DNA of 64,000 bases, taken from positions 11,175 to 75,174 of the forward strand of contig CANRGR010000001.1 in NCBI GenBank assembly GCA_947630245.1, given 5' to 3'. The number at the start of each line of letters is the position of its first letter. Position 1 is the first letter of the stretch. A program made the position numbers and the translations under genes. Under the pieces are notes generated by a model. It searched no databases and was not told the DNA's origin. It saw only the letters and a list, made by a program, of their open reading frames with translations. Of the stretch, positions 8,330-49,620 are shown one piece after another. The DNA comes from an uncultured Clostridia bacterium. Its GTDB lineage: Bacteria > Bacillota > Clostridia > Christensenellales > Borkfalkiaceae.

Positions 8330-8764
8330 TTTGCGCTTTCCCGTCATTCCGCCATTCTTTCCTGTCATTCCGAGGGCACGCAGTGCCCGCCCCGCCCGCA
8401 TTCTTTTTCACGAAGGGCGGCACGAGGAGCGCCAGCGACGAAGTAGTGAATCCCCTCGTTCAAAGCGAACTTCGTATTGGGGGATACACTCCTCCCTCGC
8501 TCCGCTCGGTCGTCGGTATGACAGCGGGGTGCGGACTGCGCTCTTCCTGTCATTCCCCTGTTCTTTCCTGTCATTCCGAACCCCCGAAGGGGGTGAGAGA
8601 ATCCCCTTGTTCAAAACGGACTTCGTATTAGGGGATACACTCGCTACGCTCGGTATGACAGCGGGGCGCGGACTGCGCTCTTCCCTGTCATTCCCCTGTT
8701 CTTTCCTGTCATTCCGAACCCCCGAAGGGGGTGAGAGAATCCCCTCGGTCGATGTTCTTCCCTG
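8330..8764. repeat. intergenic repeat array R1 (about three tandem composite units)
   Basis: Repeated modules: GTCATTCCGA-[hairpin core]-GAGAATCCCC (8364-8455, 8570-8606, 8708-8744), ...ACTTCGTATnnGGGGATACACTC, and GCTCGGT(CGTCGG)TATGACAGCGGGGnGCGGACTGCG. The same modules recur at five other loci. Confidence 0.9.
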
Positions 8765-9040
8765 TCATTCAAGAGAAAGGTCGTTCCATGCAGGATTCCC
8801 CTGCGCTATGAGCTTTACTTTATTGTTATGAGAAAGTTTTTTCACAACTTTCTCGCGTGTAATCGCGTCCTCAATTTGCGTGTACGATTCAAAATAAACC
8901 AACTTCTTTATTTGGTATCTCTTGGTGAACCCGTCGTTCACACCGTTTTTATGCTCGTAAACTCGGCGATTGAGATCGTTTGTGACTCCCGTGTACAACA
9001 CAGTATTGTGTTGGTTTGTCATAATGTAAACGTAATACAT
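8765..9040 (-). CDS. GIY-YIG nuclease family protein (UPF0213/COG2827-like)
   Basis: MYYVYIMTNQHNTVLYTGVTNDLNRRVYEHK... carries the GIY (YVYIM), YTG(V) and R-x3-EH motifs. Clearly more AT-rich than its flanks and embedded between repeat arrays. Confidence 0.85.
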   Translation of the reverse strand: MYYVYIMTNQHNTVLYTGVTNDLNRRVYEHKNGVNDGFTKRYQIKKLVYFESYTQIEDAITREKVVKKLSHNNKVKLIAQGNPAWNDLSLE

Positions 9041-9070
9041 TCAACGCCGTCTTTTTTCACGCCTGTTTGC

Positions 9071-9279
9071 GCCGTCATTCCTCTGTTCTTCCCTGTCATT
9101 CCCCTGTTCTTTCCTGTCATTCCGAACCCCCGAAGGGGGTGAGAGAATCCCCTTGTTCAAAGCGAACTTCGTATCAGGGGATACACTCCTCCCTCGCTCC
9201 GCTCGGTCGTCGGTATGACAGTGGTGTGCGGAACTCGCTCCGCTCGGTCGTCGGTATGACAGTGGTGCGCGGTATGACA
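9071..9279. repeat. intergenic repeat array R2
   Basis: Same modules as R1: GTCATTCC variants 9074-9120, full hairpin module 9113-9152, GGGGATACACTC, and three TATGACA units. Confidence 0.85.
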
Positions 9280-9418
9280 ATTTACGATGTGATAACAGCC
9301 GCAAGGGGGTGCGGGTGTTATGACATCGGGGGGCTTGCGCCCTCCAATGCAACTCTCCGATCCGCCGCATCCCTCATCCCTGTCCGGCGGATCAAAGAGT
9401 TTATGTTTTCAGAATTGA

Positions 9419-9889
9419 TTAGGATTTAGGAATATCCGTAACACTGGTTTCCGTCAAGAGCAATTTAACCGTGTAACCACCGTTGTCGGCTTTCTTTGCT
9501 TCACCCGCAGTCGTATAGGTTGCAGTACCGGTATAGCTCTTATCCGTCTTCGCGACACCAGTCGCAATCGGAGTGACTACCAGTTTCGTAAAATCACCGT
9601 TTGAGGAAATCGTTGCGTCAACCGTCCATGCTCTGACATTGTTTTCGGTACCTTGACCAGTAGGCGCTGCCCAAACTTCACCTGCAGCAGTTTTCTCACT
9701 GTTTTCAAGAAGATAAACAATAGCCGTGCTACGGGTAGTGCGGATATTAGCATCCTTAGTAGCATCCTCTGCCTTGCCAAGCGCACCCACAAAGAGCGGG
9801 ACTGCAATCGCAACAAGGACTGCGATGATCGCAACAACGATCAGGAGTTCGGCAAGGGTAAAGCCCTTGCGGTTCTTTCTTTTCAACAT
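9419..9889 (-). CDS. pilA: type IV major pilin (prepilin with class III signal)
   Basis: MLKRKNRKG|FTLAELLIVVAIIAVLVAIAVPLF has the canonical G/F cleavage site, Glu+5 and a hydrophobic alpha1-N. 156 aa, with GC visibly lower than the neighbours. Confidence 0.9.
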   Translation of the reverse strand: MLKRKNRKGFTLAELLIVVAIIAVLVAIAVPLFVGALGKAEDATKDANIRTTRSTAIVYLLENSEKTAAGEVWAAPTGQGTENNVRAWTVDATISSNGDFTKLVVTPIATGVAKTDKSYTGTATYTTAGEAKKADNGGYTVKLLLTETSVTDIPKS

Positions 9890-9974
9890 AGTTTCATTCT
9901 CCTTATAAAATCATGATTTTATTTCTACCGCCTACGGGATGAATAGGCGTTCGAAACCTTGTTTAATGGGGCCC

Positions 9975-10427
9975 CCCCTCGCTACGCTCGGTATGACGGC
10001 GGGGGCTCCCGCTTGGCGCCCCTCGCAGGGGAGCTCCGCCCGCAGGGCGGTGAGGGGTTTCTGAAACCCTTTCGGCTCACTCCGTTCGCCACTTCCCCTA
10101 TAAGGGGCAGCAAGGGTGCGGACTGCGTATCAGGGGATACACTCCTCCCTCGCTCCGCTCGGTCGTCGGTATGACAACGGGGTGCGGACTGCGCTTTCCT
10201 GTCATTCCGAACCCCCGAAGGGGGTGAGAGAATCCCCTTGTTCAAAGCGGACTTCGTATCAGGGGATACACTCGCTACGCTCGGTATGACAGTGGGGTGC
10301 GGACTTCGTATCAGGGGATACACTCCTCCCTCGCTTCGCTCGGTCGTCGGTATGACAGTGGGGCGCGGACTGCGTATCAGGGGATACACTCGGGCTCCGC
10401 CCTCGGTATGACAACGCGGGTGCGAGG
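9975..10427. repeat. intergenic repeat array R3
   Basis: Contains the about 110-bp module GGCTCCCGCTTGGCGCCCCTCGCAGGGGAGCTCCGCCCGCAGGGCGGTGAGGGGTTTCTGAAACCC...CCCCTATAAGGGGCAGCAAG (10005-10114), one GTCATTCCGA hairpin module (10198-10237) and four GGGGATACACTC/TATGACA units. Confidence 0.9.
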
Positions 10428-10428
10428 A

Positions 10429-11649
10429 TCAATAACTGCCGGCGATGCCCGTGGACATCGTGAAGATGGGAACGTAGATCGCGATGACGATGAATCCGAC
10501 GACAACGCCGAGAATGATCGTAATCATCGGCTCGATCAACGAGAGCGCCTTATCGGACGCGGCAATCGCCTCTTCCGAATAGAACAGCCCGATCGAACGG
10601 AGCGTATCCTCCAACATACCCGAGGATTCCCCTACCGTGATCATTTCGATGAGCATCGGCGGAAGATAGAGCGATTCCTTCAACGATTCCCCCAAACTCA
10701 TGCCGCTTTCGAGCTTGACGATCGACTCGTTCAGCTCTTTGCCGACGCAACGGGTATCGAGGACGCGGCTCACGATATCGAGCGCGCGCGTGACGGGAAG
10801 TCCCGCCGCGAGCAGCGTTGCAAGCGTATTCGCCGTCTGCGCCGCCGCGTTGAAGCGCGTAATCTTGCCGAGAACGGGCATTCTGATGCGGATTTTCGAA
10901 TATACCATTCTGCCCCGCTCGGTTCTTCCGAAGAGGAACAGCCCGAGAATGAGCGCCGCAAGCCCGATGAGGACGAGATACCACCAATTCTTGAAGAATG
11001 TGGAGATTGCAATGAGAATGCGGGTAACGAGCGGGAGCTCGGTTCCGATTCCCTGCAACGTCTCCGTCATTCTCGGCACAAGCACGACCATGACGATGCC
11101 GATGACGACGATCGCCAACAGCAGGACGATTGTGGGATAAGTGAGGGCGGATTTGACCTTTTTCTGCGTTTTATGCGCGCGGGAATAGTATGCTTCGAGG
11201 CTCTTGAACGATTCTTCCAATGTACCGGATTCCTCGCCCGCCGCCACGGTCTCAATAAACACCGCGGGGACTTTTTTGCCGTTCTTGCGGAGACTGCCCG
11301 CCAACGAATAGCCCGCGGCGACGTCTCCCGCGCAAGCGCGCAGAATGCGGCGCATGAGTTTATCGTCGCTCTGGTCGGCGATGAGCTCGATCGTGCGCGT
11401 CATGGTGAGCCCCGCTTTGAGCATGATGGCAAACTGGTTTGCCGTGAGCGAAAGCGTTTTATTGCTGACCCAAAGCGGCTCGTTGATGTCGATATTGACC
11501 CGCCGTTCTTTGCGGACGGGTTTGATGGAATCGACAATCGCGTACGTTTTGCGGATTTCGTTCACCGCTTCGAACTCGTCGTACGCCTCGATTACGCCGT
11601 TCACCGTGGTTCCGTCTTTCGCGATCGCACGGTATTTATACGTCTGCAT
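10429..11649 (-). CDS. pilC: type IV pilus platform protein PilC (T2SS-F family)
   Basis: 406 aa with duplicated T2SSF-type halves and three TM regions. Lies between pilT and pilA. Confidence 0.9.
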   Translation of the reverse strand: MQTYKYRAIAKDGTTVNGVIEAYDEFEAVNEIRKTYAIVDSIKPVRKERRVNIDINEPLWVSNKTLSLTANQFAIMLKAGLTMTRTIELIADQSDDKLMRRILRACAGDVAAGYSLAGSLRKNGKKVPAVFIETVAAGEESGTLEESFKSLEAYYSRAHKTQKKVKSALTYPTIVLLLAIVVIGIVMVVLVPRMTETLQGIGTELPLVTRILIAISTFFKNWWYLVLIGLAALILGLFLFGRTERGRMVYSKIRIRMPVLGKITRFNAAAQTANTLATLLAAGLPVTRALDIVSRVLDTRCVGKELNESIVKLESGMSLGESLKESLYLPPMLIEMITVGESSGMLEDTLRSIGLFYSEEAIAASDKALSLIEPMITIILGVVVGFIVIAIYVPIFTMSTGIAGSY

Positions 11650-11686
11650 ATACCCTCCTTTTCGTTATTTTTTCGAATTTTGTTCG

Positions 11687-12736: not shown

Positions 12737-12775
12737 AATGTTTTACTCTCTCCTCATAAACGATATTTTTCGGTC

Positions 12776-14470: not shown

Positions 14471-14508
14471 TACGCTGTCCTCCTTTCGCGGATACCAAAC
14501 CGCATTAC

Positions 14509-14537
14509 ATGATACAACAATCGAGCTTTCTTGTCAA
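14509..14537 (-). promoter_or_regulatory. sigma-A type promoter for pilB
   Basis: On the minus strand: TTGACA (14532-14537), 17 nt, TATCAT (14509-14514). An AAAGGAGG RBS precedes the ATG at 14470. Confidence 0.6.
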
Positions 14538-14599
14538 GAAATTCGGCAGGGAATCCGAATTTTCCGCTATTTTGTTGAAAACGCCAAATTTATCCGAAC

Positions 14600-17263
14600 T
14601 CAATCCTCTTCCTTCGGAAGGTGGACTTTCAACACCTGTATGAGCTGGGGAATGTCGATCGGCTTTGCGACGTGGGCGTTCATGCCGCACTCCGCCGCTT
14701 TCCGTCTGTCCTCGTCGAAGGCATTTGCGGTCATGGCGACGATGGGCACGGAGGCAAGTTTCGCGTTGGGAAGCGCGCGGATTCTGCGCGTCGCCTCATA
14801 GCCGTCCATCACGGGCATCTGAATGTCCATGAGGATGAGATCGAAATGTCCCGGCTCGGACGATTTCACCTTTTCGACGGCGACGGAACCGTCCTCCGCC
14901 GTCTCCACCGCAAACCCGTTCTCGGTGAGCAGTTCCTCCGCGATCTCGCGGTTGAGTTCATTGTCCTCGACGAGCAGGACGCGCCTGCCCCCGAATTCTC
15001 CCGGATCCGCGGGAGTCTCGCCCTCCGCGGCTCCGTCCGTGCCCGCGTCGATGACCGACTGCAACGTGTCGCGCAGTTCGGAGAGGAAGATGGGCTTGTT
15101 GCAATAGGCGGTGACGCCGATGTCCTTCGCCTCGTCCATAATCGCCGAGACGTCGTATGCGGAAATGATGATGATCGGGATCTCGTCGCCGACGAGTTTC
15201 CGGATCCTGCGGACGATCTCGAAGCCGCTCAGGTCGGGCATGACCCAGTCGATGATGTAGACGGCGAACGAGTCGCCCACGTCGACCGCCTGATGGGCGC
15301 GGAGCACCGCTTCTTTGCCGTACATCGTCCACTCGGCGCGCATGCCGATCTGCATGAGCATCTTGCTGACGCTGTCGCAGGTGTCGAAATTGTCGTCCAC
15401 GACGAGGGCGCGGAGCCCTTCGAGCTCACGGATCGTCTCCGTATTTTTATGCTGTGTTTGCAGACGGAACTGCAAATTGATGATAAATTCGCTCCCCTTG
15501 CCCTGTTCGGTGACGAGATCGATCTTGCCGCCCATCGTGTCGATGATGCTCTTCGTGATCGCCATGCCGAGCCCCGTCCCCTGAATGCCGCTGACGGTTG
15601 ACGTCCGCTCCCGTTCGAAGGGTTCGAAGATGTGTTTCGCAAATTCCTCGCTCATGCCGATTCCCGTATCCTTGACGCGGATCTCATACGCCCCGTAGCC
15701 CGTCGGCGCGCCCGCCTTCTGGCGGACCGTCAACGAGATGGAGCCTCCCGCGGGCGTGAACTTGATGGAATTGGAGAGCAGATTCAAAAGAACCTGGTTG
15801 ACGTGCAGTTTGTCGCAGTAGATGTCCTCGTCGACAACGTCCATCGTATCCATGAAGAAATTGAGCTGTTTGCTCTTCATCTGGGTCTGGATGATGTTGC
15901 GCATGTCGCGGAAGATATCCGAGATACTGCACGGTTTTTCTTCGATGTTGAGTTTCCCGCTCTCGATGCGCGACATGTCGAGAATGTCGTTGATGAGCGA
16001 GAGCAGATGATTCCCGGACGAGAGGATCTTTTTGAGATAATCCTGTACCCGCTCCCTGTTGTCGATATTCGTCTCGGCGAGAGCGGCAAAGCCGAGAATG
16101 GCGTTCATGGGCGTGCGGATATCGTGAGACATGTTCGAGAGGAAGGTCGTCTTGGCGCGCTCCGCCGCCTCCGCCTTGTGCAGTTTCTCTTCGAGCACCG
16201 CGCGCTCCACCGACTTATTCACCGTCTCCCGCGCGACATGGCGCATCCAGAAGAAGTAGGCGACGAGCGCCACGAAGAAGATGACGCCCACAATGATGAA
16301 CACGATCCGCACCTGCTCGACGTTTCCGAAGGCGACGTCCGAGGGAACGGCGATGCAGATGGACCACTGGTTGACCGCCTCGTCCTCCTCCGCAATCGAC
16401 GCAGCGGGAGCAAACGGTGCATAGTAAACGTATTCCCATTTGCCGCTCCTCTCCGATTTGAGTTCGGTATAGCCGCTCAGTTCGAGCCCGAGCATCTCTT
16501 CCGTGACCTGCCCGGCGGACTTGCCGCGCGTTGTGCGGTTTAAGAGCCCAAAGTCGTCGAAACTGCCGAATTTTTTCGTCTCGGGATCGGGACCGTTCAG
16601 AGTGTCCATGATCGTCTCGTGCCCTGCGCTCGAAAGATCGAACACCATGACGCCCGCGTTCCCGTTGTAGATGTTGTCCGTGCGCAGAAGAGCGGGCAGA
16701 GAAGAGAGCGCGGTGACGCCGTAAAGAAGCGCGACAATCTCCCCGTTCTTTTCCACCGGCACAAAATGGGCGATGAGCTGTGTGCCCTCCACGCCCGCGC
16801 GGTGGCTCTCGAACCGGTGCGAGATGTGCTTCCCGTGCGTCTTTTCCTCTTCGAAATCGAACTGTCCGTTTTCGACGGTATTGTCGTCGGGAAGGAAGAT
16901 GACGCCCGACGGCACGAGAATGCGCAGATTCATCGTAAGCTGCAACGGTCTGAGTTCGGAGAGCGACGCGGTGAGAAGCTCCCGGAACTGCTCGGAGTTT
17001 GTATCTTGCAGGTCAAACGCTTCGGACGCGGAGAGAATCTGCGCCATCGAATCGAGCACCTCCCCGTCCCGCTGGAACTTGGAAGCGATCTGGTCGATGA
17101 CGGTGTTCGCCGCGTCCTCGAACTGATCCAGCCCCCGTTCCCGCGTGATTTTGTCGCACCCGAAGTATGCCGCAAGAATCCCCGCAATAATCACGACGAT
17201 GAGAATTACGGTCGCAACCATAGATTTATCGCCGAGCATATAACCTTTGAGCTTATTTTTCAT
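14600..17263 (-). CDS. hybrid sensor histidine kinase with two receiver domains (HK3)
   Basis: Start at the ATG at 17263 (MKNKLKGY) with an AAGGAGT RBS. Architecture: TM, about 300-aa extracytoplasmic region, TM, H-box [11 protein letters not shown], HATPase (GTGLGMAI), REC1 (YIIDWVMPDLSG), REC2 (LILMDIQMPVMDG). Confidence 0.9.
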   Translation of the reverse strand: MKNKLKGYMLGDKSMVATVILIVVIIAGILAAYFGCDKITRERGLDQFEDAANTVIDQIASKFQRDGEVLDSMAQILSASEAFDLQDTNSEQFRELLTASLSELRPLQLTMNLRILVPSGVIFLPDDNTVENGQFDFEEEKTHGKHISHRFESHRAGVEGTQLIAHFVPVEKNGEIVALLYGVTALSSLPALLRTDNIYNGNAGVMVFDLSSAGHETIMDTLNGPDPETKKFGSFDDFGLLNRTTRGKSAGQVTEEMLGLELSGYTELKSERSGKWEYVYYAPFAPAASIAEEDEAVNQWSICIAVPSDVAFGNVEQVRIVFIIVGVIFFVALVAYFFWMRHVARETVNKSVERAVLEEKLHKAEAAERAKTTFLSNMSHDIRTPMNAILGFAALAETNIDNRERVQDYLKKILSSGNHLLSLINDILDMSRIESGKLNIEEKPCSISDIFRDMRNIIQTQMKSKQLNFFMDTMDVVDEDIYCDKLHVNQVLLNLLSNSIKFTPAGGSISLTVRQKAGAPTGYGAYEIRVKDTGIGMSEEFAKHIFEPFERERTSTVSGIQGTGLGMAITKSIIDTMGGKIDLVTEQGKGSEFIINLQFRLQTQHKNTETIRELEGLRALVVDDNFDTCDSVSKMLMQIGMRAEWTMYGKEAVLRAHQAVDVGDSFAVYIIDWVMPDLSGFEIVRRIRKLVGDEIPIIIISAYDVSAIMDEAKDIGVTAYCNKPIFLSELRDTLQSVIDAGTDGAAEGETPADPGEFGGRRVLLVEDNELNREIAEELLTENGFAVETAEDGSVAVEKVKSSEPGHFDLILMDIQMPVMDGYEATRRIRALPNAKLASVPIVAMTANAFDEDRRKAAECGMNAHVAKPIDIPQLIQVLKVHLPKEED

Positions 17264-17294
17264 ACTCCTTCCATGCAAGGATCCACGGATCCGC

Positions 17295-17657: not shown

Positions 17658-17679
17658 ATCGTCACCTCTTTTTTGGATC

Positions 17680-19764: not shown

Positions 19765-19785
19765 CCTTTCGTCCTTTTTGACCGC

Positions 19786-21647: not shown

Positions 21648-21668
21648 GTAAAAACGTAAGATTTCGGG

Positions 21669-23065: not shown

Positions 23066-25228
23066 CTATTTTCCCTCTTCGAAATATTCTTTCAGAAGTT
23101 TGCAGACAAGCGCCATATCAATCGGTTTTGCCGTATGCGCATTCATGCCGCACGCAAGACAGCGGGAGACGTCGTCCGAAAAGGCGTCTGCGCTCATGGC
23201 GATGATGGGAACCGTCTTTGCGTCGGGACGGTCCATCGCGCGGATCGCCTCCGTCGCCTCATAGCCGGACATGACGGGCATGCGGATATCCATAAAGATC
23301 ACATCGTAATAGCCGACGGGAGACGCTGCGAACAGATCGGCGCACAGTTTTCCGTTCTCCGCCGATTCGACGATGAGCCCGACTTCCGAGAACAGCTCCT
23401 CCGCAATCTCGCGGTTGAGTTCGTTGTCCTCGGCGAGAAGAACGCGCTTCCCGCCGAAATCCGCCGCCTCTTCCTCGGGGGAGAGAGCAAGCTCTCCGGA
23501 GCGCTCAAAATCGAGCGTGACGCGGAATTCCGTGCCCTGTCCGGGCGCGCTGTCGAATTCGATCTCGCCGTGCATCGAGTCGACGATATATTTCGTGATC
23601 GCCATTCCGAGCCCCGATCCCTCGATTTGATGGACCCGTCCGCTGTCCTCGCGGGCAAACGCGTCGAATACCTGCTTTTGGAAGTTCTCCGTCATGCCGA
23701 TGCCCGTGTCCTTCACGCGAAAGACGACCCGCACGAAATTCTCCCCGCGCGGGGAATCCTCCTCCCGGCAGACGAGCAGGATCGATCCCTCCTCGGGCGT
23801 GAATTTCACCGCGTTGCCGAGCAGGTTGAGCAGAATCTGGTTGAGCCGCACGCCGTCGCAACGGACATTTTCGACGGTCAGCGCGTCGATCTCGGTTTCG
23901 AAGTTCTGACCCTTTGCACGGGTCTGCGGCTGGATGATGCCGACGACGTTCCCGAGCGTCTCGCGAAGGGAGACCGTCTCCTCGTGCAGTTCGAGTTTTC
24001 CGCTCTCGATCTTGGACATGTCGAGAATATCGTTGATGAGCCCGAGCAGATGACGGCTCGACATGGCGATCTTGTCGAGACAGTTTTTCACCTGTTCCTC
24101 GTTTCCGACATTGCTGCGCGCGATCGCGGTCATGCCGACAATGCCGTTCATGGGCGTGCGGATGTCGTGGCTCATATTGGACAGAAATTCGCTCTTCGCC
24201 CGATTGGCATGCTCCGCCTCTTTGCGCATCTGTTCCAATGCGCGCATTTGACTGCGGGTGAGACGGTAATAAAAGACGAACACGACGAGGAGCGCAATCA
24301 GAATGACGAGACAGCTGAGAACTGCCGCCAGGCTCCACGACTGCCCGAGGGCGTTGACCGTCGTATTGAGCGGTCCGTAGGGCAGGAACAGCAAAAGATA
24401 CCAATCCGAATAGGGCAGCGCCGTCTCGTAGGAAAACCGCCGCTCGCCGTCGAGCGTAAACTCGACCGAAAACTCCCTGCCGTCCTCCATCGCGCTTTGC
24501 AGTTCTTCGAGATATACTTCCTTTTCGAGTTCTTCTCCGTCCTTGCGGATCGCGCCGTAGCGGCTGCGGACGCGGTCGAAAAAATTTGCCTCATCGCTCT
24601 CGATTCCGCCGCGGAGAATGATCGTCCCGTCCCCGTCGACGATGAAATAATAGATGGACATGCTCGTGAGGTCCACCGAGAGCGCGTCGCTGATGTAGGA
24701 GATGGGACGGGTTGCGACGAGCGCGACGCTCGTTTGTCCGTCCGACATGGGATAGGCGGCGGGGACCCCCATCACGACGAAACGCTCGCCATAAGAATCG
24801 CTCCCGCTCGACATTGTCTCCCCGCCCGAGACGAGAATGTCCAGAAAGTATTCCTCGCGGTCGATCGAGAGCGTACTGCCGTACAGCATATCAATGGAAC
24901 CGTCGGCGGCGATCAGCGCAAGACGGTCGAACCCGCGGTTGCGGGCGTGCGACCGCAGCGCCGTGTGCAGCGCCGCGGGTTCGAGTTTGCTCTCGGGCGG
25001 AACGGCGTCGATGATTGCGCTGACCTGCGAAAGCCTGAGTTCGAAAGTCGTCCCGAAATGAGCGGCGGACTGTTTGCTCATGTCCGCCATATAAATAGAG
25101 CCGAGTTTGCCGATCGCATCCGCGCCTCGTTTGTTCATGACATATGCCATGAACAGAAAAACGGCGACGCACAGAACCGAAATACAGACGATGCTGACGA
25201 GCAAAAAACGGGCTGTTTTGTTTTTCAT
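23066..25228 (-). CDS. hybrid sensor histidine kinase with one receiver domain (HK2)
   Basis: Start at the ATG at 25228 (MKNKTARF). Architecture: TM, extracytoplasmic region, TM, H-box [11 protein letters not shown], HATPase (GSGLGMAI), REC ([13 protein letters not shown]). Confidence 0.9.
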
Positions 25229-32113: not shown

Positions 32114-32114
32114 A

Positions 32115-32423: not shown

Positions 32424-32540
32424 AAGATTTCTTCCTTCCGCCGTCAGATCGCGCTGCGGCGGCAACGCACCCGGTTTAACAATCCATCGAGCGATGCTTT
32501 TCGGCACTGTTCAAGGGGATCATCTCGGGCTTGTCTCTCG

Positions 32541-33115
32541 GTACGACAGCGGAGCGAACTGCGTATGAGGGGATACACTCGACTCCGCGCTTTGCGCTCC
32601 GCTCGGTATGACAACGGAGAGAGGGCGCGTGTCGGTATGACAGCGAAGGCTCTCACTTGGCGCCCCTCGGGGTCCCCGCAAAAAGACGTAGTATTTTTGC
32701 GGGGTGGTATAGGGGAGCTCCGCCCGTAGGGCGGTGAGGGGTTTCTGAAACCCTTTTGAAACCCTTTCGGCTCACTCCGTTCGCCACTCTCTCATGTGGG
32801 TAGAACCCCGCATTCGGTCACCGTTCGCGCGGCAAATGCGCTCACTCATGTCGCATTGCGCCAACAGTTATCAACTGTTGGCAGGATGCAATGCTCCACC
32901 CTTTCAGGGGCAGCAAGGGGGAGGGAGCAAAGAATTTCGTGAACATCTCTGCGCGGAGCAGGGTTCCCCTGCGGTAGCGCCCACAATTTGCGCGATACTT
33001 CGCGCTTGTTGTCCGATGAAACGAAGAAGAGGTTCGGCAAGTTAAGGCGCGAGAGCACTTTTCCTCGAACGATTCTTTTCGACGCAAGCGAAGCGAGCAA
33101 GCAAAGAATCGTTCG
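32541..33115. repeat. intergenic repeat array R4
   Basis: Holds GGGGATACACTC, TATGACA units, the 110-bp module interrupted by an extra hairpin module (32649-32790), and CCCACAATTTGCGCGATACTTCGCGCTTGTTGTCCGATGAAACGAAG...GTTAAGGCGCGAGAGCAC, which is shared with R5 and R6. Confidence 0.9.
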
Positions 33116-33121
33116 AAACCC

Positions 33122-38270: not shown

Positions 38271-38299
38271 TTGAAATCTTTGCGGGATTGTGATATAAT
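38271..38299 (+). promoter_or_regulatory. sigma-A type promoter (extended -10) for the hydrogenase operon
   Basis: TTGAAA (38271-38276), 17 nt, TGaTATAAT (38291-38299). Confidence 0.6.
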
Positions 38300-38381
38300 A
38301 CCCCCAACGAAGCGAATATCCCGCTGTTTTTCCGGATTCCGAGGAAAAACGCGGCGCAGAAGATTTTCAGGAGGTTGAAGA

Positions 38382-38876: not shown

Positions 38877-38877
38877 G

Positions 38878-40791: not shown

Positions 40792-40802
40792 GGTGAAAAC
40801 AA

Positions 40803-42527: not shown

Positions 42528-42543
42528 CCTCCGTTTGCATAGA

Positions 42544-42578
42544 TAAATCCCCGCGTTCTACGCGGGGATTTCTCATTT
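42544..42578 (+). terminator. rho-independent terminator after hydA
   Basis: AAATCCCCGCG-TTCTA-CGCGGGGATTT followed by CTCATTTT. Confidence 0.8.
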
Positions 42579-42620
42579 TCGGGCAAATGCCGCCCAAATG
42601 CAGGGCTCTACCCGCGGGCG

Positions 42621-43338
42621 GAGTTCCTCCTCTTGGCGCCCCTCGGGGTCTCCGCAAAAAGACGTAGTATTTTTGTGGGGTGGTTGTTTTTCTTGTCATT
42701 CCGAGGGAGCCGTAGGCGACTGAGAGAATCCCCTTCTCCAAAGCGGACTTCGTATCGGGGGATACACTCGGGCTCCGCCCTCGGTATGACAGAAAAGGCT
42801 CTCGCTTGGCGCCCCTCGCAGGGGAGATGTCACGAGCTTGCGAGTGACAGAGGGGTTTCTGAAATCCTTTCCCTCTCACTCCGTTCGAGGACTTCCCCTA
42901 TAAGGGGCAGCAAGGCGCGGCGCGGGATTCTCCCGCGCCGCGCCATTTTCAAATCACGTCATGTTGAGCGCAGTCGAAACATCGCCTTGATTTTTTAAGA
43001 CCTTGCACCTTGGGCGGCAGGGACCGCCGCAAAGCGGTCGCGCCCGCCAGCGCTCCTGTCACGAGACGCTCACAGCGCACCGCGCTGTTGAGCAGAATGC
43101 CTCGCTCCACCTCGACAAGTTCAGAGTGACATAATCAGAACGCATTCTTGTTCTCCTCTGTCATTTCGAGGGAGCCGTAGGCGACTGAGAGAATCCCCTT
43201 CTCCAAAGCGGACTGCGTATCAGGGGATACACTCGCTCCGCTCGGTATGACAGCTAAAAATCTTATGCGCGTTGGAAAACCACGCTTTTCCATAAGCGCC
43301 CACAATTTGCCGCATACTTGCGGCTTGTTGTTTGCGCA
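42621..43338. repeat. intergenic repeat array R5
   Basis: Two GTCATT(C/T)CGA-GGGAGCCGTAGGCGACT-GAGAGAATCCCC modules (42695-42733 and about 43159-43198), GGGGATACACTC/TATGACA units, a 110-bp module variant (42797-42914), GTCATGTTGAGCGCAGTCGAAACATC, and the CCCACAATTTGCCGCATACTTGCGGCTTGTTGT module (about 43300-43335). Confidence 0.9.
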
Positions 43339-43467
43339 AGGCAGATTGTAGGCGGGCGAATGGGTTTCATGAAATCAAATCGCTTAACCCCTCACGAAAT
43401 TTTTCCGCAAGGAAAAATTTGTGAACCCCTTCTCTTGAACCATGCGCGCGCGTGGTTTTCTTTTAGA

Positions 43468-43498
43468 CAAAAAGAGCAACGGTTTTTTGCCGCTGCTC
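43468..43498 (-). terminator. rho-independent terminator after the 80-aa gene
   Basis: On the minus strand: GAGCAGCGG-CAAAAAA-CCGTTGCTC followed by TTTTTG. Confidence 0.7.
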
Positions 43499-43555
43499 AA
43501 AAATGCAATTCCGCCGTTCCGCGGTTCTTCTCTCTGTCCCGTTTGCGTTTCTCCG

Positions 43556-43798
43556 CTAAAAGATCTCCTCCACGCCGATCCGAAAATTCTGTCCGTTGCG
43601 GAATCTGACGATCAAAGCGTTCCCCTCGCAGGTGCTGTCCGCGTCGAACACTTCGTCCGCGAAGATCAAGAGATCGTATAGGACGTTGGATTCCGTGAGG
43701 ATATAGTCGTCCGGATGCGCCGAGATCGCGATCTCCTCCTTGCTTTCGAGCCGTTCGAGTACCGTTTCGATAATTCGTTTTACGTGTTCATCTTCCAT
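43556..43798 (-). CDS. hypothetical small acidic protein (80 aa)
   Basis: Start at the ATG at 43798 (MEDEHVKRII) with an AGGAGAAACA RBS; low-GC context; no family recognised. The ORF-track start at 43879 lacks an RBS. Confidence 0.55.
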   Translation of the reverse strand: MEDEHVKRIIETVLERLESKEEIAISAHPDDYILTESNVLYDLLIFADEVFDADSTCEGNALIVRFRNGQNFRIGVEEIF

Positions 43799-44052
43799 AT
43801 TGTTTCTCCTTTGCGATAAAATTAAAGCGCATCCCGCAAAGAGACGCGCTCCATCGGCGGTGTTTGTTTGCGACAACAACCGAAACTTTTGCTAAAAACA
43901 CAAGTTTTTACCGCGCAATGGCAATCTTACCTTGTGTCCTCATGGCAAAATATATTCGATTGTTGTCGCAGTTTCAGTATAACACGGTTTAGTTTGGTTG
44001 TCAAGAACTTTTTCACGCCTTCAAAATGACCGCACTTTCTCAATCACAAGAC

Positions 44053-44084
44053 AGCGCCGCGCGGGCGACTGCCCGCGCGGCGCT
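44053..44084 (-). terminator. GC-rich hairpin directly after the XRE gene stop
   Basis: 14-bp stem AGCGCCGCGCGGGC / GCCCGCGCGGCGCT with a 4-nt loop, 4 nt past the stop. The T-run is weak. Confidence 0.5.
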
Positions 44085-44087
44085 AAA

Positions 44088-44291
44088 TTATTTTCTCTTG
44101 ATTTGCAAAAGCTCATCTGCACTGATATCAAAGTACATGCAAAGAATCCGTATTGACCGAAAGTCGGGCAATCTTCCGGCATTTAGCCATCCACTGATCG
44201 TTGTCTTTGGAATGCCGGTATCGCGCGACAATTTTGCCTGTGTAATCCCAAATTCCGTCAGCAAATTTTGTAATAATTCCGAAAAAGTCAT
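44088..44291 (-). CDS. XRE-family helix-turn-helix transcriptional regulator (67 aa)
   Basis: FGITQAKLSRDTGIPKTTISGWLNAGRLP is a typical Cro/CI-type HTH. No SD precedes the ATG. Confidence 0.85.
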   Translation of the reverse strand: MTFSELLQNLLTEFGITQAKLSRDTGIPKTTISGWLNAGRLPDFRSIRILCMYFDISADELLQIKRK

Positions 44292-44310
44292 AAAAATATT
44301 ATATGTAAAT

Positions 44311-44354
44311 TACCTAATTAGGTATTGACAATACCTAATTAGGTATGATATAAT
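44311..44354. promoter_or_regulatory. divergent promoter region with two identical 14-bp palindromic operators
   Basis: TACCTAATTAGGTA at 44311-44324 and 44332-44345 flank TTGACA (44325-44330). TGaTATAAT follows at 44346-44354 (18-nt spacer), then the AAGGAGA RBS at 44361-44367. Confidence 0.8.
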
Positions 44355-44373
44355 CAAGTTAAGGAGAATGCAA

Positions 44374-45498
44374 ATGATTCGATGCAGATTTTGTGGAACG
44401 GAATTTGACGGAAATTTTTGCCCAAATTGCGGAAAAAAACGACAGGAAACCTATTTTTGTTCTCATTGCGGTGCGCGGCTTGTGGAAAATTGGAAATTTT
44501 GTACCGAATGCGGCTTTCCGACTGATTCTGACTCTCCCATTTTACACACAAATCCCATGTCCGATAAGAAGCGATCGCAAGAACTGCCTGTTAAAAGCAT
44601 TTTTCAAAAGATTGCGCTGTTTATGCCCGATCTTTTTCTCCTGCTCTTTTCTTTGGCGTCGTTCTTCTTTTTTCTTGCGCCCATCGCCGTAATGCCCGGC
44701 GGAGAAATTCTCGGAGAAAAGATTCCGGCTGAAAGTTTTGGCAATCTCTATCAACTGATAAAACCAAGCGAAGAAGGCACTTTGTCTCCCTTGATCATTT
44801 TCCCTATTGTTGCCGCGGTTTCCGCTCTTTTTGCCGCCTACAATCTGTTCTTCTCCCAAAAACACCCCGTCCGTATCGTCATTCGATATTTATTCTTCCT
44901 ATTTTTCATTGTATATGCAAGCGTAATCATTGCAATCATAAATGCCACAGACGAAGGAATGGGGTTGATGGCGGTCGGAAATTGTTGTATCTTGATTCTT
45001 TCCTTTTCCGTTATCTTTTTTGTTTTTTCTCTCGCATTCGATCTGTACCTTCTTTTCAATCCTCCGGAAAAGGATTCTGTGGCGGCTTCCATCTGCCTTT
45101 CCCCATCGCAATCCGAAACATCGGACGAAATATCGGATAACGCATACAGCGAACGTGATGATCTATATTCTGTCAAAATCGAAAAAGGATATCGAAGTAT
45201 AGGGAAAGAAGCGTTCCGCGACTGTTTAAGACTATGCTCCGTCTCCGTCGGAGAGGGATTGACTTTCATCGCAGATAACGCTTTTCTCGGCTGCGTCTCC
45301 TTAAAGGAAATCGTCTTGCCCGCTTCGCTCAGGGAGATCGGATGGTATGCCCTTTGTAATTGTATCGCGCTTGAAAAAATCGAATTCAACGGCACAACAG
45401 AGCAGTGGAAACATATCAGCAAGGGTGGAATGTGGGACGATCAGAGCGGAGAATATCGTGTAATTTGTTCGGACGGCATATTGCAAAAAGAACAGTAA
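44374..45498 (+). CDS. double zinc-ribbon / multi-pass membrane / BspA-type leucine-rich-repeat protein
   Basis: CRFCGTEFDGNFCPNCG and CSHCGARLVENWKFCTECG zinc ribbons, about five hydrophobic segments, and a C-terminal IGKEAFRDCLRLCSVSV..IADNAFLGCVSLKEIVLP..IGWYALCNCIALEKIEF (LRR_5-like). The ATG at 44374 is preferred over 44368 on RBS spacing. Confidence 0.8.
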   Translation: MIRCRFCGTEFDGNFCPNCGKKRQETYFCSHCGARLVENWKFCTECGFPTDSDSPILHTNPMSDKKRSQELPVKSIFQKIALFMPDLFLLLFSLASFFFFLAPIAVMPGGEILGEKIPAESFGNLYQLIKPSEEGTLSPLIIFPIVAAVSALFAAYNLFFSQKHPVRIVIRYLFFLFFIVYASVIIAIINATDEGMGLMAVGNCCILILSFSVIFFVFSLAFDLYLLFNPPEKDSVAASICLSPSQSETSDEISDNAYSERDDLYSVKIEKGYRSIGKEAFRDCLRLCSVSVGEGLTFIADNAFLGCVSLKEIVLPASLREIGWYALCNCIALEKIEFNGTTEQWKHISKGGMWDDQSGEYRVICSDGILQKEQ

Positions 45499-45652
45499 TC
45501 TTTGTTACTGCCTCTCTCTTCCTCCTAAATGTACCCGTCGCTTAGCGGGTGGTTCCTGTTCCAAAGAAGCGGCGTTGGTTCAGTTCATCAGCCCTATGAA
45601 CATCCTTTCCGCGCCCGAATAAATATCCAAATAGGTCTCAAAGGAAACAAAA

Positions 45653-45673
45653 CCCCCGTGGGGTTCACGGGGG
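45653..45673. terminator. hairpin between convergent genes
   Basis: CCCCCGTG-GGGTT-CACGGGGG. Confidence 0.5.
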
Positions 45674-45695
45674 GGCGACAAACGGAACGAAAAAA

Positions 45696-47039
45696 TCAGC
45701 GGAACAGCTCTTCTCCGTTGGTTTCGATGACCTTTTTGTAGAACGCCGCGCTCTTTTTGGGCGTGCGTTCGAGGGTCTCGGGGTCGAAATGCACGAGCCC
45801 GAATTTCTTCGAGAAGCCCTCCGCCCATTCGAAGTTATCGTAGAGCGTCCAATAGAAATAGCCGTAGATGGGCACCTCGCACGAGGCGCGGAACATTTCG
45901 CGCAGATAGCGCTTCAAAAAGTCGATCCTGCAATCGTCGTTGATCTCTCCGTTGAGATCCTTCCACTCCGAGAGCGCCACGCCGTTTTCGGTGTAGATGA
46001 TGGGAAGCCCGTAGCGTTCAAAGAGGAATTTGGGACCGTAATACATGACGTCGGGATAGACGTTCCAACGGGTGTCCGTCTTGGGCGTGGCGGGGGTGGG
46101 CGTGAGCGTAATGATTTTCCCGTTCTGCTCCCTCACGCGGTTGCCGGAGTAGGTATTCACCCCATAGAAGTCGATCTTCGAGCGGATGATCTCCATATCG
46201 CTCTCGGGATAGGAGAATCCGCACTCCTCCTGCCATGCGCGGAACTCTTCGGGATATGTTCCGAAGATGAGCGGATCGGTGTAATAGTTGACCGAACCGA
46301 AATCCCTGTGGCAGGCGAACGTGTCCTGTTTTGCCACACGGTAGTCGTCGGGGGTGTCGGGAATGGACGGCCAATACGCCTGCGACGTGCCGACTTTGAT
46401 CGGATGTTTGCATGTCTTGCGGAGCATCTTTTCCCCCAGCCCGCAGGCGAGCAGGACATGGTGCGCCGCGCGCATGACTTCGCCGTCCGAGAGCCTCAGA
46501 AACGGCGCGTGCGTCCCCGCGGAATGTCCGAGTCCCAAAAAGACCTGCGGTTCGTTGATGAGGATGAAGTGCGAAATGCTGTCGCCGAACAGCTCGGCGA
46601 CGACGCGGGCATATTCCTCGAACCATTTGGGACTTTCGGGGTTAAGCCAGCCGCCGCGCAGATAGAGGGCGTACGGATAATCCCAATGGAAGAGGGTGAC
46701 CCACGGTTCGATCCCCGCCTCCCGGAGCGCGGCAAGGAGTTCGCCGTAAAACCGCTTTCCGTCCTCGCTGACCTTTCCGACACCCTCGGGCAGGAGCCGC
46801 GCCCAGTTGATGGAAAAGCGGTACGCCTTGATGCCGAGCTCCTTCATGAGCGCGACGTCCTCGCGGAATTTGTGGTAGTGGTCGCAGCCGACGTCGCCGC
46901 GATGACCTTCAAAGATGCGCCCCTCGGTCGCGGAGCCGACGTCCCAGACGTTGAGCCCCTTGTCTGCCTCATGGGCGCCGCCTTCGATCTGATAGGACGC
47001 AGTTGCCACGCCCCAGACAAAGTTTTTGACAAAAGACAT
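45696..47039 (-). CDS. GH1 beta-glucosidase / 6-phospho-beta-glucosidase
   Basis: Start at the ATG at 47039 (MSFVKNFVWGVATASYQIEGG) with a GGAGGAGAA RBS. Acid/base LINEP and nucleophile YTENG. Confidence 0.9.
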   Translation of the reverse strand: MSFVKNFVWGVATASYQIEGGAHEADKGLNVWDVGSATEGRIFEGHRGDVGCDHYHKFREDVALMKELGIKAYRFSINWARLLPEGVGKVSEDGKRFYGELLAALREAGIEPWVTLFHWDYPYALYLRGGWLNPESPKWFEEYARVVAELFGDSISHFILINEPQVFLGLGHSAGTHAPFLRLSDGEVMRAAHHVLLACGLGEKMLRKTCKHPIKVGTSQAYWPSIPDTPDDYRVAKQDTFACHRDFGSVNYYTDPLIFGTYPEEFRAWQEECGFSYPESDMEIIRSKIDFYGVNTYSGNRVREQNGKIITLTPTPATPKTDTRWNVYPDVMYYGPKFLFERYGLPIIYTENGVALSEWKDLNGEINDDCRIDFLKRYLREMFRASCEVPIYGYFYWTLYDNFEWAEGFSKKFGLVHFDPETLERTPKKSAAFYKKVIETNGEELFR

Positions 47040-47056
47040 ATCATTCTCCTCCAAAT

Positions 47057-48979
47057 TCAAAGATTGTCGATCTCCCGCAGCCAGAGATCTGCCGATGCGT
47101 CGGACGGCATCCGCCAATCGGCGCGGGGAGAGAGGCTCACCGAGCCCACTTTCACGCCGTCCGGCACACAGTTGCGCTTGAATTGCTGCGCAAAGAAGCG
47201 CCGATAGAAGTTCTTCAACCATTTCCGCAGTTCGGAACGGTCATATTTGTCCCGGAACGCATATTCCGCCAGATAGAGCGTCTTGGCGGGACTGTCTCCG
47301 CGGCGCAGAAAATGCCAGAGATAGAAGTCGTGCAGTTCGTAGGGACCCACGAGATCCTCCGTCTTTTGCGCGATATTTCCCTTTTCGTCGGGCGGAAGGA
47401 GCTCGGGAGAGATCTCCGTGCTCAGAATTGATTTGAGCACGACTTCCATTCTTCCGCCGAGCCGCTTCGCCTCATATGCGACAAGCGATCTCACAAGCGT
47501 CTTGGGAATGGAGGAATTGACGGCATACATGCTCATATGGTCGCCGTTATACGTGCACCAGCCGAGCGCGAGTTCGCTCAGATCCCCCGTCCCGACGACG
47601 AGCCCTTGCGTTTCATTGGCGATGTCCATGAGCACCATCGTGCGGTATCTCGCCTGCGCGTTCTCATAGGTGACGTTCCTGTCCTCGGGATCGTGGTCGA
47701 TGTCGCGGAAATGGCGGTTCACCGTCCCGCCGATGCTGACGGAGCGGACAGTCACCCCCGCCGCCTGCATGAGCGACATGGCGTTGTTGCGGGTCTTGAC
47801 GGAAGTCCCGAAGCCCGGCATCGTCACCGCGACGACGTGCTCCCTGTCCTTTCCCAAAAGGTCGAACGCGCGGCAGGCGACGAGGAGCGCGAGCGCGGAA
47901 TCGAGCCCGCCCGAGATCCCGATGACCGCGCTCTCGGCACGGGTATGTGCGAGCCGCTTCGCAAGCGCGGACGACTGCATCGAGAGAATGAGCCCGCATC
48001 GCCGTTCGAGTTCCTTGCCCTGCGGCACAAAGGGAAGTTGCGGCACCTTGCGCACGGTGAGATCGCCCTCGCCCACAAAGTCCGCCCACTTCTCCGCGGG
48101 GATCCGATCTCCCTCGCCGTGAGAGAAGGTCGTCTGCTTTCTGCGCTCCGAAACGAGGAATCCGACGTCCACTTCCGCGACCGCCGTCCCACCCGAGAAG
48201 GGCAGAGCCTCCGCAAGGCAAGCGCCGTTTTCATAGATGAGATTGTTGCCCGCAAAGACCATGTCGGACGTGCTCTCCCCCGTGCCCGCGTCGGCATAGA
48301 TATAGGCACAAAGATTCTTGCCCGACTGCGCGGCAAGGAGCGTCTTTCGGTATTCCCTCTTCCCCACCGTCTCGTTGGAGGCGGAAAGATTGACGATGAT
48401 TGTCGCGCCACGGCGGCAGAGGGAGACGGAGGGCGATTCGGGCGCCCAGAGATCCTCGCAGATCTCGCAGCCGACGGTGACCCCGGGGTGATTTTTGTCG
48501 CGGATGAGAAGTTCGCGGTCCATGTAGGGGATTTCGCCGTTGAAAGTCGCCTCAAGGATGAGGACCGGTCGCTCCTCGGGCGCGGGCGAAAAGTAGCGCG
48601 CCTCGTAAAATTCATTGTAATTGGGAAGGTAGGTCTTGGGGACGAATTCCAAAATTTTGCCGTCCGCAAGCGCCGCGGCGCAGTTATAGAGCTTGCCGCC
48701 GTGGCTGAGCGGGAGCCCGACAAAGACGAGCATCTTCTTGCCCGCCGTCGCCCTTGCGATCGCTTTGAGCGCGTCAAGACAGCCGTCCAAGAGGGTCTGC
48801 CGCAAGAAGAGATCGCCGCAGGTGTAGCCCGAAATACAGAGCTCGGGAAAGACGAGGAGCTCCGTACCGTTTTCGGCATGTTCCCCGATGATCTCAATGA
48901 TCTTTTTCGCGTTGAATTTCGGATCGGCAACCCGCAGTTCCGGGCTCGCCGCCGCAACTTTTACAAATCCGTATTTCAT
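47057..48979 (-). CDS. nadE: glutamine-dependent NAD+ synthetase
   Basis: Start at the ATG at 48979 (MKYGFVKVAAASP) with an AGGAGGAAA RBS. N-terminal CN-hydrolase (FPELCISGY) plus a C-terminal NAD synthetase domain (ISGGLDSAL). Confidence 0.9.
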   Translation of the reverse strand: MKYGFVKVAAASPELRVADPKFNAKKIIEIIGEHAENGTELLVFPELCISGYTCGDLFLRQTLLDGCLDALKAIARATAGKKMLVFVGLPLSHGGKLYNCAAALADGKILEFVPKTYLPNYNEFYEARYFSPAPEERPVLILEATFNGEIPYMDRELLIRDKNHPGVTVGCEICEDLWAPESPSVSLCRRGATIIVNLSASNETVGKREYRKTLLAAQSGKNLCAYIYADAGTGESTSDMVFAGNNLIYENGACLAEALPFSGGTAVAEVDVGFLVSERRKQTTFSHGEGDRIPAEKWADFVGEGDLTVRKVPQLPFVPQGKELERRCGLILSMQSSALAKRLAHTRAESAVIGISGGLDSALALLVACRAFDLLGKDREHVVAVTMPGFGTSVKTRNNAMSLMQAAGVTVRSVSIGGTVNRHFRDIDHDPEDRNVTYENAQARYRTMVLMDIANETQGLVVGTGDLSELALGWCTYNGDHMSMYAVNSSIPKTLVRSLVAYEAKRLGGRMEVVLKSILSTEISPELLPPDEKGNIAQKTEDLVGPYELHDFYLWHFLRRGDSPAKTLYLAEYAFRDKYDRSELRKWLKNFYRRFFAQQFKRNCVPDGVKVGSVSLSPRADWRMPSDASADLWLREIDNL

Positions 48980-49030
48980 AATTTCCTCCTTCCCGCGCGT
49001 TGAAACACCACGCTTCCGGTGCTTTCCCAC

Positions 49031-49620
49031 TCTTTTTGTCATTCCGAACCCCGAAGGGGGGGGGTGAATCCCTAAGTCACTGTTTTTCCTGTCATTCCGA
49101 ACCCCGAAGGGGTGCCCCGCCCGCATTCTTTTTCACGAAGGGCGGCACGAGCACGCAGTGCGAAGTAGTGAATCTCCTCATTCAATACGGACTGCGTATC
49201 GGGGGATACACTCGGGCTACGCCCTCGGTATGACAGCGAAGGCTCTCGCTTGGCGCCCCTCGGGGTCCCCGCAAAAAGACGTAGTATTTTTGTGGGGTGG
49301 TATAGGGGAGCTCCGCCCGCAGGGCGGTGAGGGGTTTCTGAAACCCTTTCGGCTCACTCCGTTCGCCACTTTCCCTTTCAGGGACAGCAAGCGTTCCCAC
49401 AAATTCCCCGCGAGCAGAACCACGCTTCTGCGTAGCGGGACACAATTTGCCGCATACCTGCGGCTTGTTGTCCGATGAAACGAACGAGAGGACAAACAAG
49501 TTAAGGCGCGGAAGCACGTTTCTTCACGGAAATTCTTTACGAAGCGCGGCGGCGCGCCGCTTGCGGCAAGCCGCAAGCGAGCAAAGAATTTCGTGAAAAA
49601 GCAAGGAATTTCGTGAAAAA
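49031..49620. repeat. intergenic repeat array R6
   Basis: Holds GTCATTCCGAACCCCGAAGGGG modules, the long-core variant shared with R1 (…CGCATTCTTTTTCACGAAGGGCGGCACGAG…GTAGTGAATC), GGGGATACACTC/TATGACA units, the interrupted 110-bp module (49241-49391), and the ACAATTTGCCGCATACCTGCGGCTTGTTGTCCGATGAAACGAA...GTTAAGGCGCGGAAGCAC module. Confidence 0.9.

Follow-up and report, generated by a model that had tools for sequence, protein, structure and literature searches.

We analysed a window of 64,000 nt from an uncultured Clostridia bacterium (Borkfalkiaceae; GCA_947630245.1, CANRGR010000001.1:11,175-75,174, forward strand). The window holds six intergenic repeat arrays, R1 to R6, and between R1 and R2 a gene, ssn, for a small GIY-YIG nuclease (Table 1). 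An original prediction, made from the letters of the window, had described the arrays as mosaics of at least five modules, of which it named modules 1 to 5, and had missed the gene. The arrays are genuine but mostly already explained: they are a gut-Clostridia variant of a system described in 2025. Very probably they are intergenic mosaics of the type of the neisserial intergenic mosaic elements (NIMEs) and bacterial interspersed mosaic elements (BIMEs), built mainly of strand-specific hairpin repeats of the SRM/NTS class together with their cognate Ssn nuclease.

Six intergenic arrays

The motif TGTCATWCCGA matched the window 21 times, against 0.04 matches expected from dinucleotide shuffles, and all 21 copies were confined to R1-R6, with none elsewhere in the window. 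CGTATNNGGGGATACACTC matched 11 times against an expectation of 0. A repeat search grouped the six arrays, found where they had been predicted, into shared repeat families. Their summed length of ~2.98 kb corresponds to 4.7% of the window, close to the 5% first estimated. All five named modules were recovered: nine copies of module 1, 11 complete copies of modules 2 and 3 in addition to partial ones, four full copies and one partial copy of module 4, and three copies of module 5. The boundaries first given for R4 (32541-33115) needed correction at the left end, where a degenerate unit moves the start ~40 nt upstream.

The arrays occupy spacers of Pfam-supported genes and are intergenic, as had been claimed. 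These spacers belong to the prepilin peptidase/GIY-YIG/pilin/PilC cluster, to the MGMT/LepA pair, to the 3' side of the FeFe hydrogenase gene (R5) and to the NadE/RecA pair. The open reading frames (ORFs) that run across the arrays have no family matches and translate as repeat peptides; they are spurious. Neighbouring copies within R1-R3 are 92-100% identical. Such identical neighbours suggest recent activity, in agreement with part of the original claim of an active or recently active family, although they are mostly local array expansion, and any transposition is putative.

Anatomy of the hairpin unit

The modules had been taken as separate building blocks in varied order. All of them exist, but the first three are not independent: module 1 and modules 2 plus 3 are the same type of hairpin unit on opposite strands. 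We refer to the module 1 architecture as subtype A and to modules 2 and 3, read on the minus strand, as subtype B. The general unit reads TGTCAT(T/A)CCGA, a variable inner hairpin, then GAG.G(A/T)ATCCCC. Subtype A takes the form TGTCATTCCGA-[core]-GAGAGAATCCCC and subtype B, in the minus-strand reading, the form TGTCATACCGA-[core]-GAGTGTATCCCC-TGATACGAAGTCCG; heads with GTCATTCC are all on the plus strand and heads with GTCATACC all on the minus strand. Each unit opens with a (C/T)GTC head and a 4-bp outer arm starting with AT (ATTC in A, ATAC in B), followed by C-GA, the inner hairpin, GA-G, one bulged base, the complementary arm and CCCC. The outer 4-mers pair as ATTC/GAAT and ATAC/GTAT around a C-G pair and tandem GA/GA. 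Subtype B ends at its 3' side in a conserved 15-nt tail, CTNATACGAAGTCCG.

The outer frame was invariant, as GTC-ATTC...GAAT-C in 37 A units and as GTC-ATAC...GTAT-C in 122 B units. The inner hairpin is hypervariable yet almost always paired, commonly with a GNA triloop. We counted 20 distinct inner cores for subtype A and 65 for subtype B in the window and related loci, and 70-74% of the cores contain a perfect stem of at least 4 bp, compared with 1% of shuffled cores. Subtype B alone uses 27 distinct stem arms. The loops are mostly GAA, GTA, GCA or GGA.

A and B units are usually paired as inverted doublets, tail to tail and ~24 nt apart, and the 29 doublets in the window and loci share one arrangement. 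As single-stranded DNA the doublet folds into one long hairpin, with z-scores of -4.7 and -5.7 on the two strands. The unit set first described was incomplete: there are two further subtypes, C in R5 and D in R2, and the single-stranded DNA fold of the D unit reaches z = -7.1. Conservation sets in abruptly at positions -2/-1 before GTCAT, which fits cleavage in a non-conserved upstream flank (PMC11893778).

Head-only copies (TGTCATTCC plus ~12 nt, with a 21-nt period) stand directly upstream of complete A units, and in relatives similar truncated heads (TGTCATTTCGAGGC...) precede A units. Nicking and repair at the head may have left these copies as footprints. Two other interpretations of the repeats were dropped: a kink-turn, whose bulge would be on the wrong strand, and a CRISPR-like array, given the irregular spacing and the lack of cas genes.

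The ssn gene and its homologues

The ssn product is a 91-aa protein that matches Pfam PF01541 over residues 1-74 (E=1e-15). In BLASTP it shares 43% identity over 88 aa with the 94-aa SsnA orthologue of N. gonorrhoeae (E=2e-27), and its residues Y5, Y16 and E63 align with the catalytic Y6, Y17 and E64 of SsnA; these positions are invariant in an alignment of 28 homologues. The homologues measure 90-100 aa, and the window protein has no extra DNA-binding domain. Homology thus identifies the product as an Ssn family protein. The N. gonorrhoeae orthologue, taken from two 2.17-Mb chromosomes filed as plasmids in PLSDB (L179 = NZ_CP119140.1; NZ_CP119142.1), has 94 aa, the residues Y6/Y17/E64 and an adjacent NTS. 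In CDD the Ssn family is cd10448, as distinct from UPF0213 (cd10456); among solved structures UPF0213 proteins come closest, and only weakly (E=2e-6). Neither NCBIfam nor PADLOC returned a specific family for the window nuclease.

The association between gene and repeats recurs outside the window. Searching the fetched loci with tblastn yielded three ssn homologues, all between queA and tgt. In two of them (L055 and L069) ssn lies inside an A/B doublet, and nearby ORF-less doublets have junction sequences identical to the cassette minus its ORF. In the third (L079, Lapin-002__bin90) ssn (93-365, minus strand) comes after a complete doublet and is followed by reverse B units; it carries an in-frame TAA where homologues have Lys, its flanking units are intact, but the gene itself has probably become a pseudogene. 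L084 holds a homologue of 71% identity on the 3' side of hemN, with a forward unit on one side of it and a reverse unit on the other. Homologues with 60-65% identity were found in Bacteroidia, Anaerolineae, Roseiflexus and Syntrophaceae, and those of L089 and L093 (Bacteroidia, Syntrophaceae) are flanked by units of the window type with other, covarying arms, ATCCC/GGGAT and ATTGC/GCAAT. Across 80 independent metagenomic loci, a forward unit was present ≤200 nt upstream in 54 of 77 and a reverse unit ≤200 nt downstream in 58 of 74, against a shuffled background of 0.11 units per kb.

Contigs with close ssn homologues are mostly <2 kb, consistent with assemblies breaking at the flanking arrays. 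In several of the called homologue proteins the N or C terminus is prolonged by read-through of the units, as in VIQRERSDRRNL and NVIPSETE.

Modules 4 and 5

Module 4 is conserved and composed of five hairpins, TTGGCGCCCCT..AGGGGAG-H2-GGGGTTT..AAACCC-TTTC-H4-ACTTYCCCT..AGGGRCAGCRAG, with 20 full copies in the window and the loci of the rabbit-gut relatives described below. Hairpins H2 and H4 show compensatory changes across species, and the loops of H1, H3 and H5 take nested insertions. RNAalifold suggested a long-range closing helix; we rejected it and prefer local hairpins, because the single position that varies shows covariation inside the local hairpin at the 3' side. Module 4 usually lies ≤~45 nt from a reverse B head (14-25 nt in the window copies), beside the position where Ssn is predicted to nick.

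The closest relatives (L035, L036) also contain module 5 and an inverted-repeat module. Modules 4 and 5 and the inverted-repeat module gave modest fold z-scores of about -2, and none of the three had a match in Rfam. Modules 4 and 5 are separate hairpin-rich filler modules, comparable in their organisation to the RS units of Neisseria mosaics.

Distribution and variable sites

We scanned species-representative genomes with the B-tail pattern and obtained 82 loci. Of these, 76 were in 11 species-level metagenome-assembled genomes (MAGs) from rabbit gut, named "uncultured Clostridia bacterium Lapin-...", with many contigs in each. The family is therefore dispersed, as first proposed, and genome-wide in at least 11 Clostridia species of the rabbit gut.

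Comparison with related genomes uncovered one site that is filled in one species and empty in another. The dut-trmB spacer measures ~10 nt in the window (229-241, minus strand) and 167 nt in L034 (Lapin-024__bin89), where pairwise alignment places one A/B doublet in it; dut and trmB were identified by six-frame translation only. The nadE-recA spacer carries arrays in the window and in L048, and the lepA-MGMT spacer in the window and in L084, in both cases with different composition. Downstream of hemN there is a plain terminator in the window and an ssn cassette in L084. Related species thus carry ssn at three different loci: pilD/pilin (window), queA/tgt (L055, L069, L079) and the site downstream of hemN (L084). 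In a set of 2.9 million viral contigs the B-unit pattern was absent and ssn homologues numbered only 9, a rarity which argues that the system is not phage-borne.

Comparison with described repeat systems

Chenal et al. (Nat Commun 2025; PMC11893778) described SsnA of N. meningitidis, a 94-aa single-domain GIY-YIG protein whose binding targets are NTS/SRM hairpin repeats and whose cuts fall immediately upstream of these repeats. Cleavage depends on the GTC 5' of the palindrome and binding on the C immediately 3' of it; no particular loop sequence is required, longer loops are tolerated, and the enzyme is strand-specific and does not bind RNA (PMC11893778). Site-specific cleavage, of single-stranded DNA only and next to the cognate hairpin, was demonstrated for four homologues, and knockout of ssnA raised transformation ~five-fold for NTS-carrying DNA (PMC11893778). 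Homologues in many phyla are flanked by SRMs, and the NTS-ssnA-NTS layout was called insertion sequence (IS)-like, its mobility not being demonstrated there (PMC11893778).

The window agrees with this system in the nuclease (~91-94 aa, one GIY-YIG domain, the identity given above, catalytic Tyr/Tyr/Glu kept), in a gene embedded in hairpin repeats with an IS-like repeat-ssn-repeat layout, and in the GTC head, the AT-initiated palindrome and the C directly after the palindrome. As in SRMs, the repeats are directional, with GTC 5' and C 3' of the palindrome, and they are overwhelmingly intergenic, clustered and numerous (21 heads in six arrays here, many contigs in the 11 MAGs). Hairpin repeats in the SRM range of 20-50 nt stand on both sides of ssn, the units measuring 26-42 nt. 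The window differs in that its units are bipartite, with a 4-bp outer arm, tandem GA/GA and a hypervariable inner hairpin, and in that subtypes A and B lie on opposite strands and form fixed doublets. The host, moreover, is an uncultured gut Clostridia lineage, where nuclease activity and any role in transformation are putative.

NIMEs of Neisseria are intergenic mosaics in which RS units are flanked by dRS3. The arrays resemble them in the interleaving of unrelated 50-150-bp modules with short palindromic units of the dRS3/NTS type, in their intergenic position and in their clustering around pilus and surface genes. They differ in module sequence (modules 4 and 5 are lineage-specific), unit architecture and phylum, and no link to the filamentous-phage integration of NIMEs was seen in the window. 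With modules 4 and 5 beside reverse B heads, in R3-R6 as well as in related MAGs, the organisation is of NIME type, an organisational analogy only, as the name denotes Neisseria sequences.

The same class of repeats, including dRS3 and the Rickettsia RPEs (RPE-4/6), was catalogued by Di Nocera et al. (2013; PMC3733652) as CGTC-tagged repetitive extragenic palindromic (REP) elements, for which no dedicated transposase was found and which were explicitly not linked to REP-associated tyrosine transposases (RAYTs). Shared features are the tagged head, a stem starting with A-T, a short C-rich tail, frequent dimers and the lack of a RAYT. In the window, the tag is mostly TGTC and the stems are broken by GA/GA and the inner hairpin; the host belongs to the Clostridia, whereas Firmicutes are not among the phyla listed in that study (PMC3733652). 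The original prediction held that the arrays go beyond simple REP elements; precedents for them nevertheless exist in the SRM/NTS repeats (PMC11893778), the CGTC-tagged REPs (PMC3733652), the NIMEs and the BIMEs of E. coli. Nor is the family simply non-autonomous, as had been supposed, because the cognate nuclease gene lies inside the array cluster.

Proposed mechanism and its weighing against alternatives

In the reading that we favour, mosaics of hairpin repeats with a cognate Ssn, the nuclease would bind a folded unit only in single-stranded DNA, as formed in replication, repair or DNA uptake. By analogy with SsnA, the key contacts would be the GTC head and the C after the palindrome, the inner hairpin would merely hold both arms together, and the nick would fall a few nucleotides 5' of the head. 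Strand-specific trimming of array-carrying single-stranded DNA could lower the recombination of incoming DNA near the flanked genes, here the type IV pilus cluster, lepA/MGMT, the hydrogenase and nadE/recA. The nicks would also leave recombinogenic ends exactly at unit boundaries. Such ends would explain the sharp 5' boundary, the head-only tandems and the joining of unrelated modules (4, 5 and others) beside heads, and likewise the ORF-less doublets, which resemble deletion derivatives of the A-ssn-B cassette. They would also account for the way in which units and the ssn cassette have reached new intergenic positions.

Several points weigh against this reading. The activity of the window Ssn and its recognition of the units are extrapolated from N. 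meningitidis SsnA (PMC11893778), and modules 4 and 5 are tied to the nuclease by adjacency alone. The window ssn is inverted relative to the usual A-ssn-B order and sits between an A unit and head-only repeats. A single window Ssn would have to serve at least four subtypes (A-D), or else paralogues would have to be present elsewhere in the genome. We recognised no target-site duplication or defined insertion site around isolated doublets, and mobility is suggested by between-species comparisons only. Finally, none of the A and B units matches the published SRM search pattern, HGTCWYN(0-2)YYVSBRHN(0-5)WNVSBRGN(0-2)RNCYNB, whose one hit in the window is at chance level and outside any unit. This pattern is an operational tool tuned to simple NTS-like stems, and the window units miss it because of their extra hypervariable inner hairpin. 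For this reason we classify them as a bipartite SRM variant and not as canonical members. At the homologue loci, the pattern had a hit ≤300 nt from the gene in 5 of 80, compared with 74 of 80 for a generic unit definition.

A more far-reaching proposal is that A-ssn-B is an autonomous single-stranded-DNA element driven by its GIY-YIG nuclease, with the ORF-less doublets as miniature derivatives and nicking as the process that stitches modules together. If true, this would be a GIY-YIG type of transposase, not established for prokaryotic insertion sequences. The proposal is compatible with the data, since the spacer of a doublet corresponds to the junctions of the cassette with the ORF removed, one orthologous site is empty in the window but filled in a relative, ssn occupies three different loci in related species, and the sharp unit boundaries fall at the predicted cleavage position. 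We consider it a tentative possibility, less likely than not.

It is unlikely that the arrays act primarily at the RNA level, as hairpins that stabilise or terminate mRNA or as small RNAs, with the link to the nuclease being secondary. Co-directional genes stand on both sides of five of the six arrays, and these five are probably transcribed; all modules are hairpin-rich, and the compensatory changes in H2 and H4 of module 4 would suit an RNA. Orientation, however, varies: B units are sense in the window pilus cluster and antisense between queA and tgt (L055, L069). All arrays and three homologue loci gave no Rfam match, with the gathering threshold or in E-value mode, and a promoter and terminator scan of R1-R3 showed no excess of either kind of site; a scan for tRNA and tmRNA found none. 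GNA triloops and GCGNAGC cores are both typical of very stable DNA mini-hairpins, and the unit loops are of this DNA type. SsnA, in addition, does not bind RNA (PMC11893778). RNA side effects of the arrays are possible.

The palindromes could also be classical REP elements, REPINs or BIMEs mobilised by a RAYT, an IS200/IS605-type Y1 transposase, in which case the GIY-YIG gene would be an unrelated neighbour. The parallels include short intergenic palindromes that fold as hairpin units in single-stranded DNA, inverted doublets that form long single-stranded-DNA hairpins, a small nuclease whose gene is flanked by units, and mosaic arrays like those of REPINs and BIMEs (PMC3116915, PMC3333891). 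This explanation is nevertheless very improbable. The tag is (C/T)GTC and not GTAG, and CGTC-tagged REPs are not linked to RAYTs (PMC3733652). The flanked gene has a GIY-YIG and not an HUH/Y1 fold, and it is the sole array-embedded gene in the window and four related loci, the window not having been scanned exhaustively for Y1 transposases. Furthermore, units flank 70-78% of the 80 independent homologue loci.

Local duplication or decayed-gene remnants confined to the region have a negligible probability: the near-identity of neighbouring copies in R1-R3 indicates that local array expansion does occur, but units lie in four separated window regions and on many contigs of 11 other species, which refutes confinement, while the array ORFs give repeat peptides without family matches and the inner hairpins vary with compensation.

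If our favoured reading of mosaics with a cognate Ssn is correct, the Ssn/SRM system, whose characterisation has been limited to Neisseria and Wolbachia, shapes ~5% of the uncultured gut Clostridia DNA studied here as well. Bipartite units flank most close homologues, so censuses of SRMs by pattern probably undercount the system. The paired, hypervariable inner hairpin agrees with the tolerance of SsnA for loop extensions and could offer natural design rules for programmable cutting of single-stranded DNA. The filled and empty site and the relocated ssn cassettes are concrete material for the question of mobility. In practical terms, the arrays yield spurious ORFs and break metagenome assemblies.

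Layout of the arrays and neighbouring features

The composition of each array is listed in Table 1. The pilin and PilC-like genes flank R2 and R3 and form one co-directional cluster with ssn, which shares their strand; the likely start of the prepilin peptidase is the Met of MELPSAV.

Table 1. Positions of the arrays, their components and the genes of the pilus cluster in the window
Feature	Position	Strand	Remarks
Prepilin peptidase gene (PilD-like)	7524-8306	-	Pfam A24_N_bact + Peptidase_A24; left edge of R1
Array R1	8330-8764		Head-only repeats and units; right end adjoins ssn
Head-only copies (R1)	8343-8371, 8549-8577, 8687-8715
Long A unit (R1)	8363-8456	+	Nested hairpin insertion
B units (R1)	8481-8523, 8632-8660	-
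A units (R1)	8569-8607, 8707-8745	+
Truncated head TGTCATTCA (R1)			Overlaps ssn stop codon
ssn	8765-9040	-	91-aa single-domain GIY-YIG nuclease, Ssn family by homology; between R1 and R2
Array R2	9071-9324
Head-only copies (R2)	9074-9123		Three tandem heads at 9074, 9095 and 9116, 21-nt period
A unit (R2)	9115-9153	+
B unit (R2)	9178-9220	-
Two partial B copies (R2)	9234-9279
Subtype-D unit (R2)	9291-9324	-	GTCATAACACCCGCACCCCCTTGCGGCTGTTATC
Type IV pilin gene	9419-9889	-	Pfam N_methyl
Array R3	9975-10427
Partial B unit (R3)	9975-9997
Module 4 (R3)	10013-10114
B unit (R3)	10134-10176	-
A unit (R3)	10200-10238	+
Further B units (R3)	10263-10291, 10315-10357, 10381-10413	-
PilC-like platform protein gene	10429-11649	-	ORF translation only
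Array R4	32500-33117
Degenerate B unit (R4)	32514-32550
B unit (R4)	32570-32642	-	Duplicated head
Module 4 (R4)	32657-32917		Two nested insertions
Module 5 (R4)	32980-33051
Inverted-repeat module (R4)	33066-33117
Array R5	42621-43338
Module 4, 5' part (R5)	42633-42684		42-nt hairpin insert
Doublet, A unit (R5)	42694-42734	+
Doublet, B unit (R5)	42759-42791	-
Module 4 (R5)	42806-42914
Subtype-C unit (R5)	42958-42983	+	GTCATGTTGAGCGCAGTCGAAACATC
Doublet, A unit (R5)	43159-43199	+
Doublet, B unit (R5)	43224-43252	-
Module 5 core (R5)	43299-43331
Array R6	49031-49620
A unit (R6)	49037-49073	+
Long A unit (R6)	49090-49178	+	Nested hairpin
B unit (R6)	49203-49235	-
Module 4 (R6)	49250-49391		Hairpin insert
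Module 5 (R6)	49439-49510
Inverted-repeat module (R6)	49524-49618

A hairpin resembling an intrinsic terminator (42546-42580; CCCCGCGTTCTACGCGGGG, then T-rich) follows the hydrogenase stop codon and precedes R5. The array is therefore placed beyond the terminator of the hydrogenase gene itself. Directly to the right of R5, a low-GC island (43400-45700; 42-50% against ~58%) encodes a zinc-ribbon and leucine-rich repeat protein of the BspA type (44368-45498, plus strand). The island may have been gained by horizontal transfer and inserted beside the array. A near-palindromic match to ctRNA_pGA1 at 44034-44112, on both strands, is below threshold (38 bits against a gathering score of 45).

Two further kinds of repeat in the window stand apart from R1-R6. 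Tandem repeats with 27-nt and 15-nt periods at 55319-55491 and 56261-56395 lie within the FtsK/SpoIIIE gene (53696-57076, minus strand); they are in-frame coding sequence before the alpha domain, which starts at residue 641, and are unrelated to the arrays. Three collinear segments shared by 14889-16176 and 23352-24219 with 71-77% identity (families D8, D15 and D20) indicate two putative paralogous large genes ~8 kb apart.

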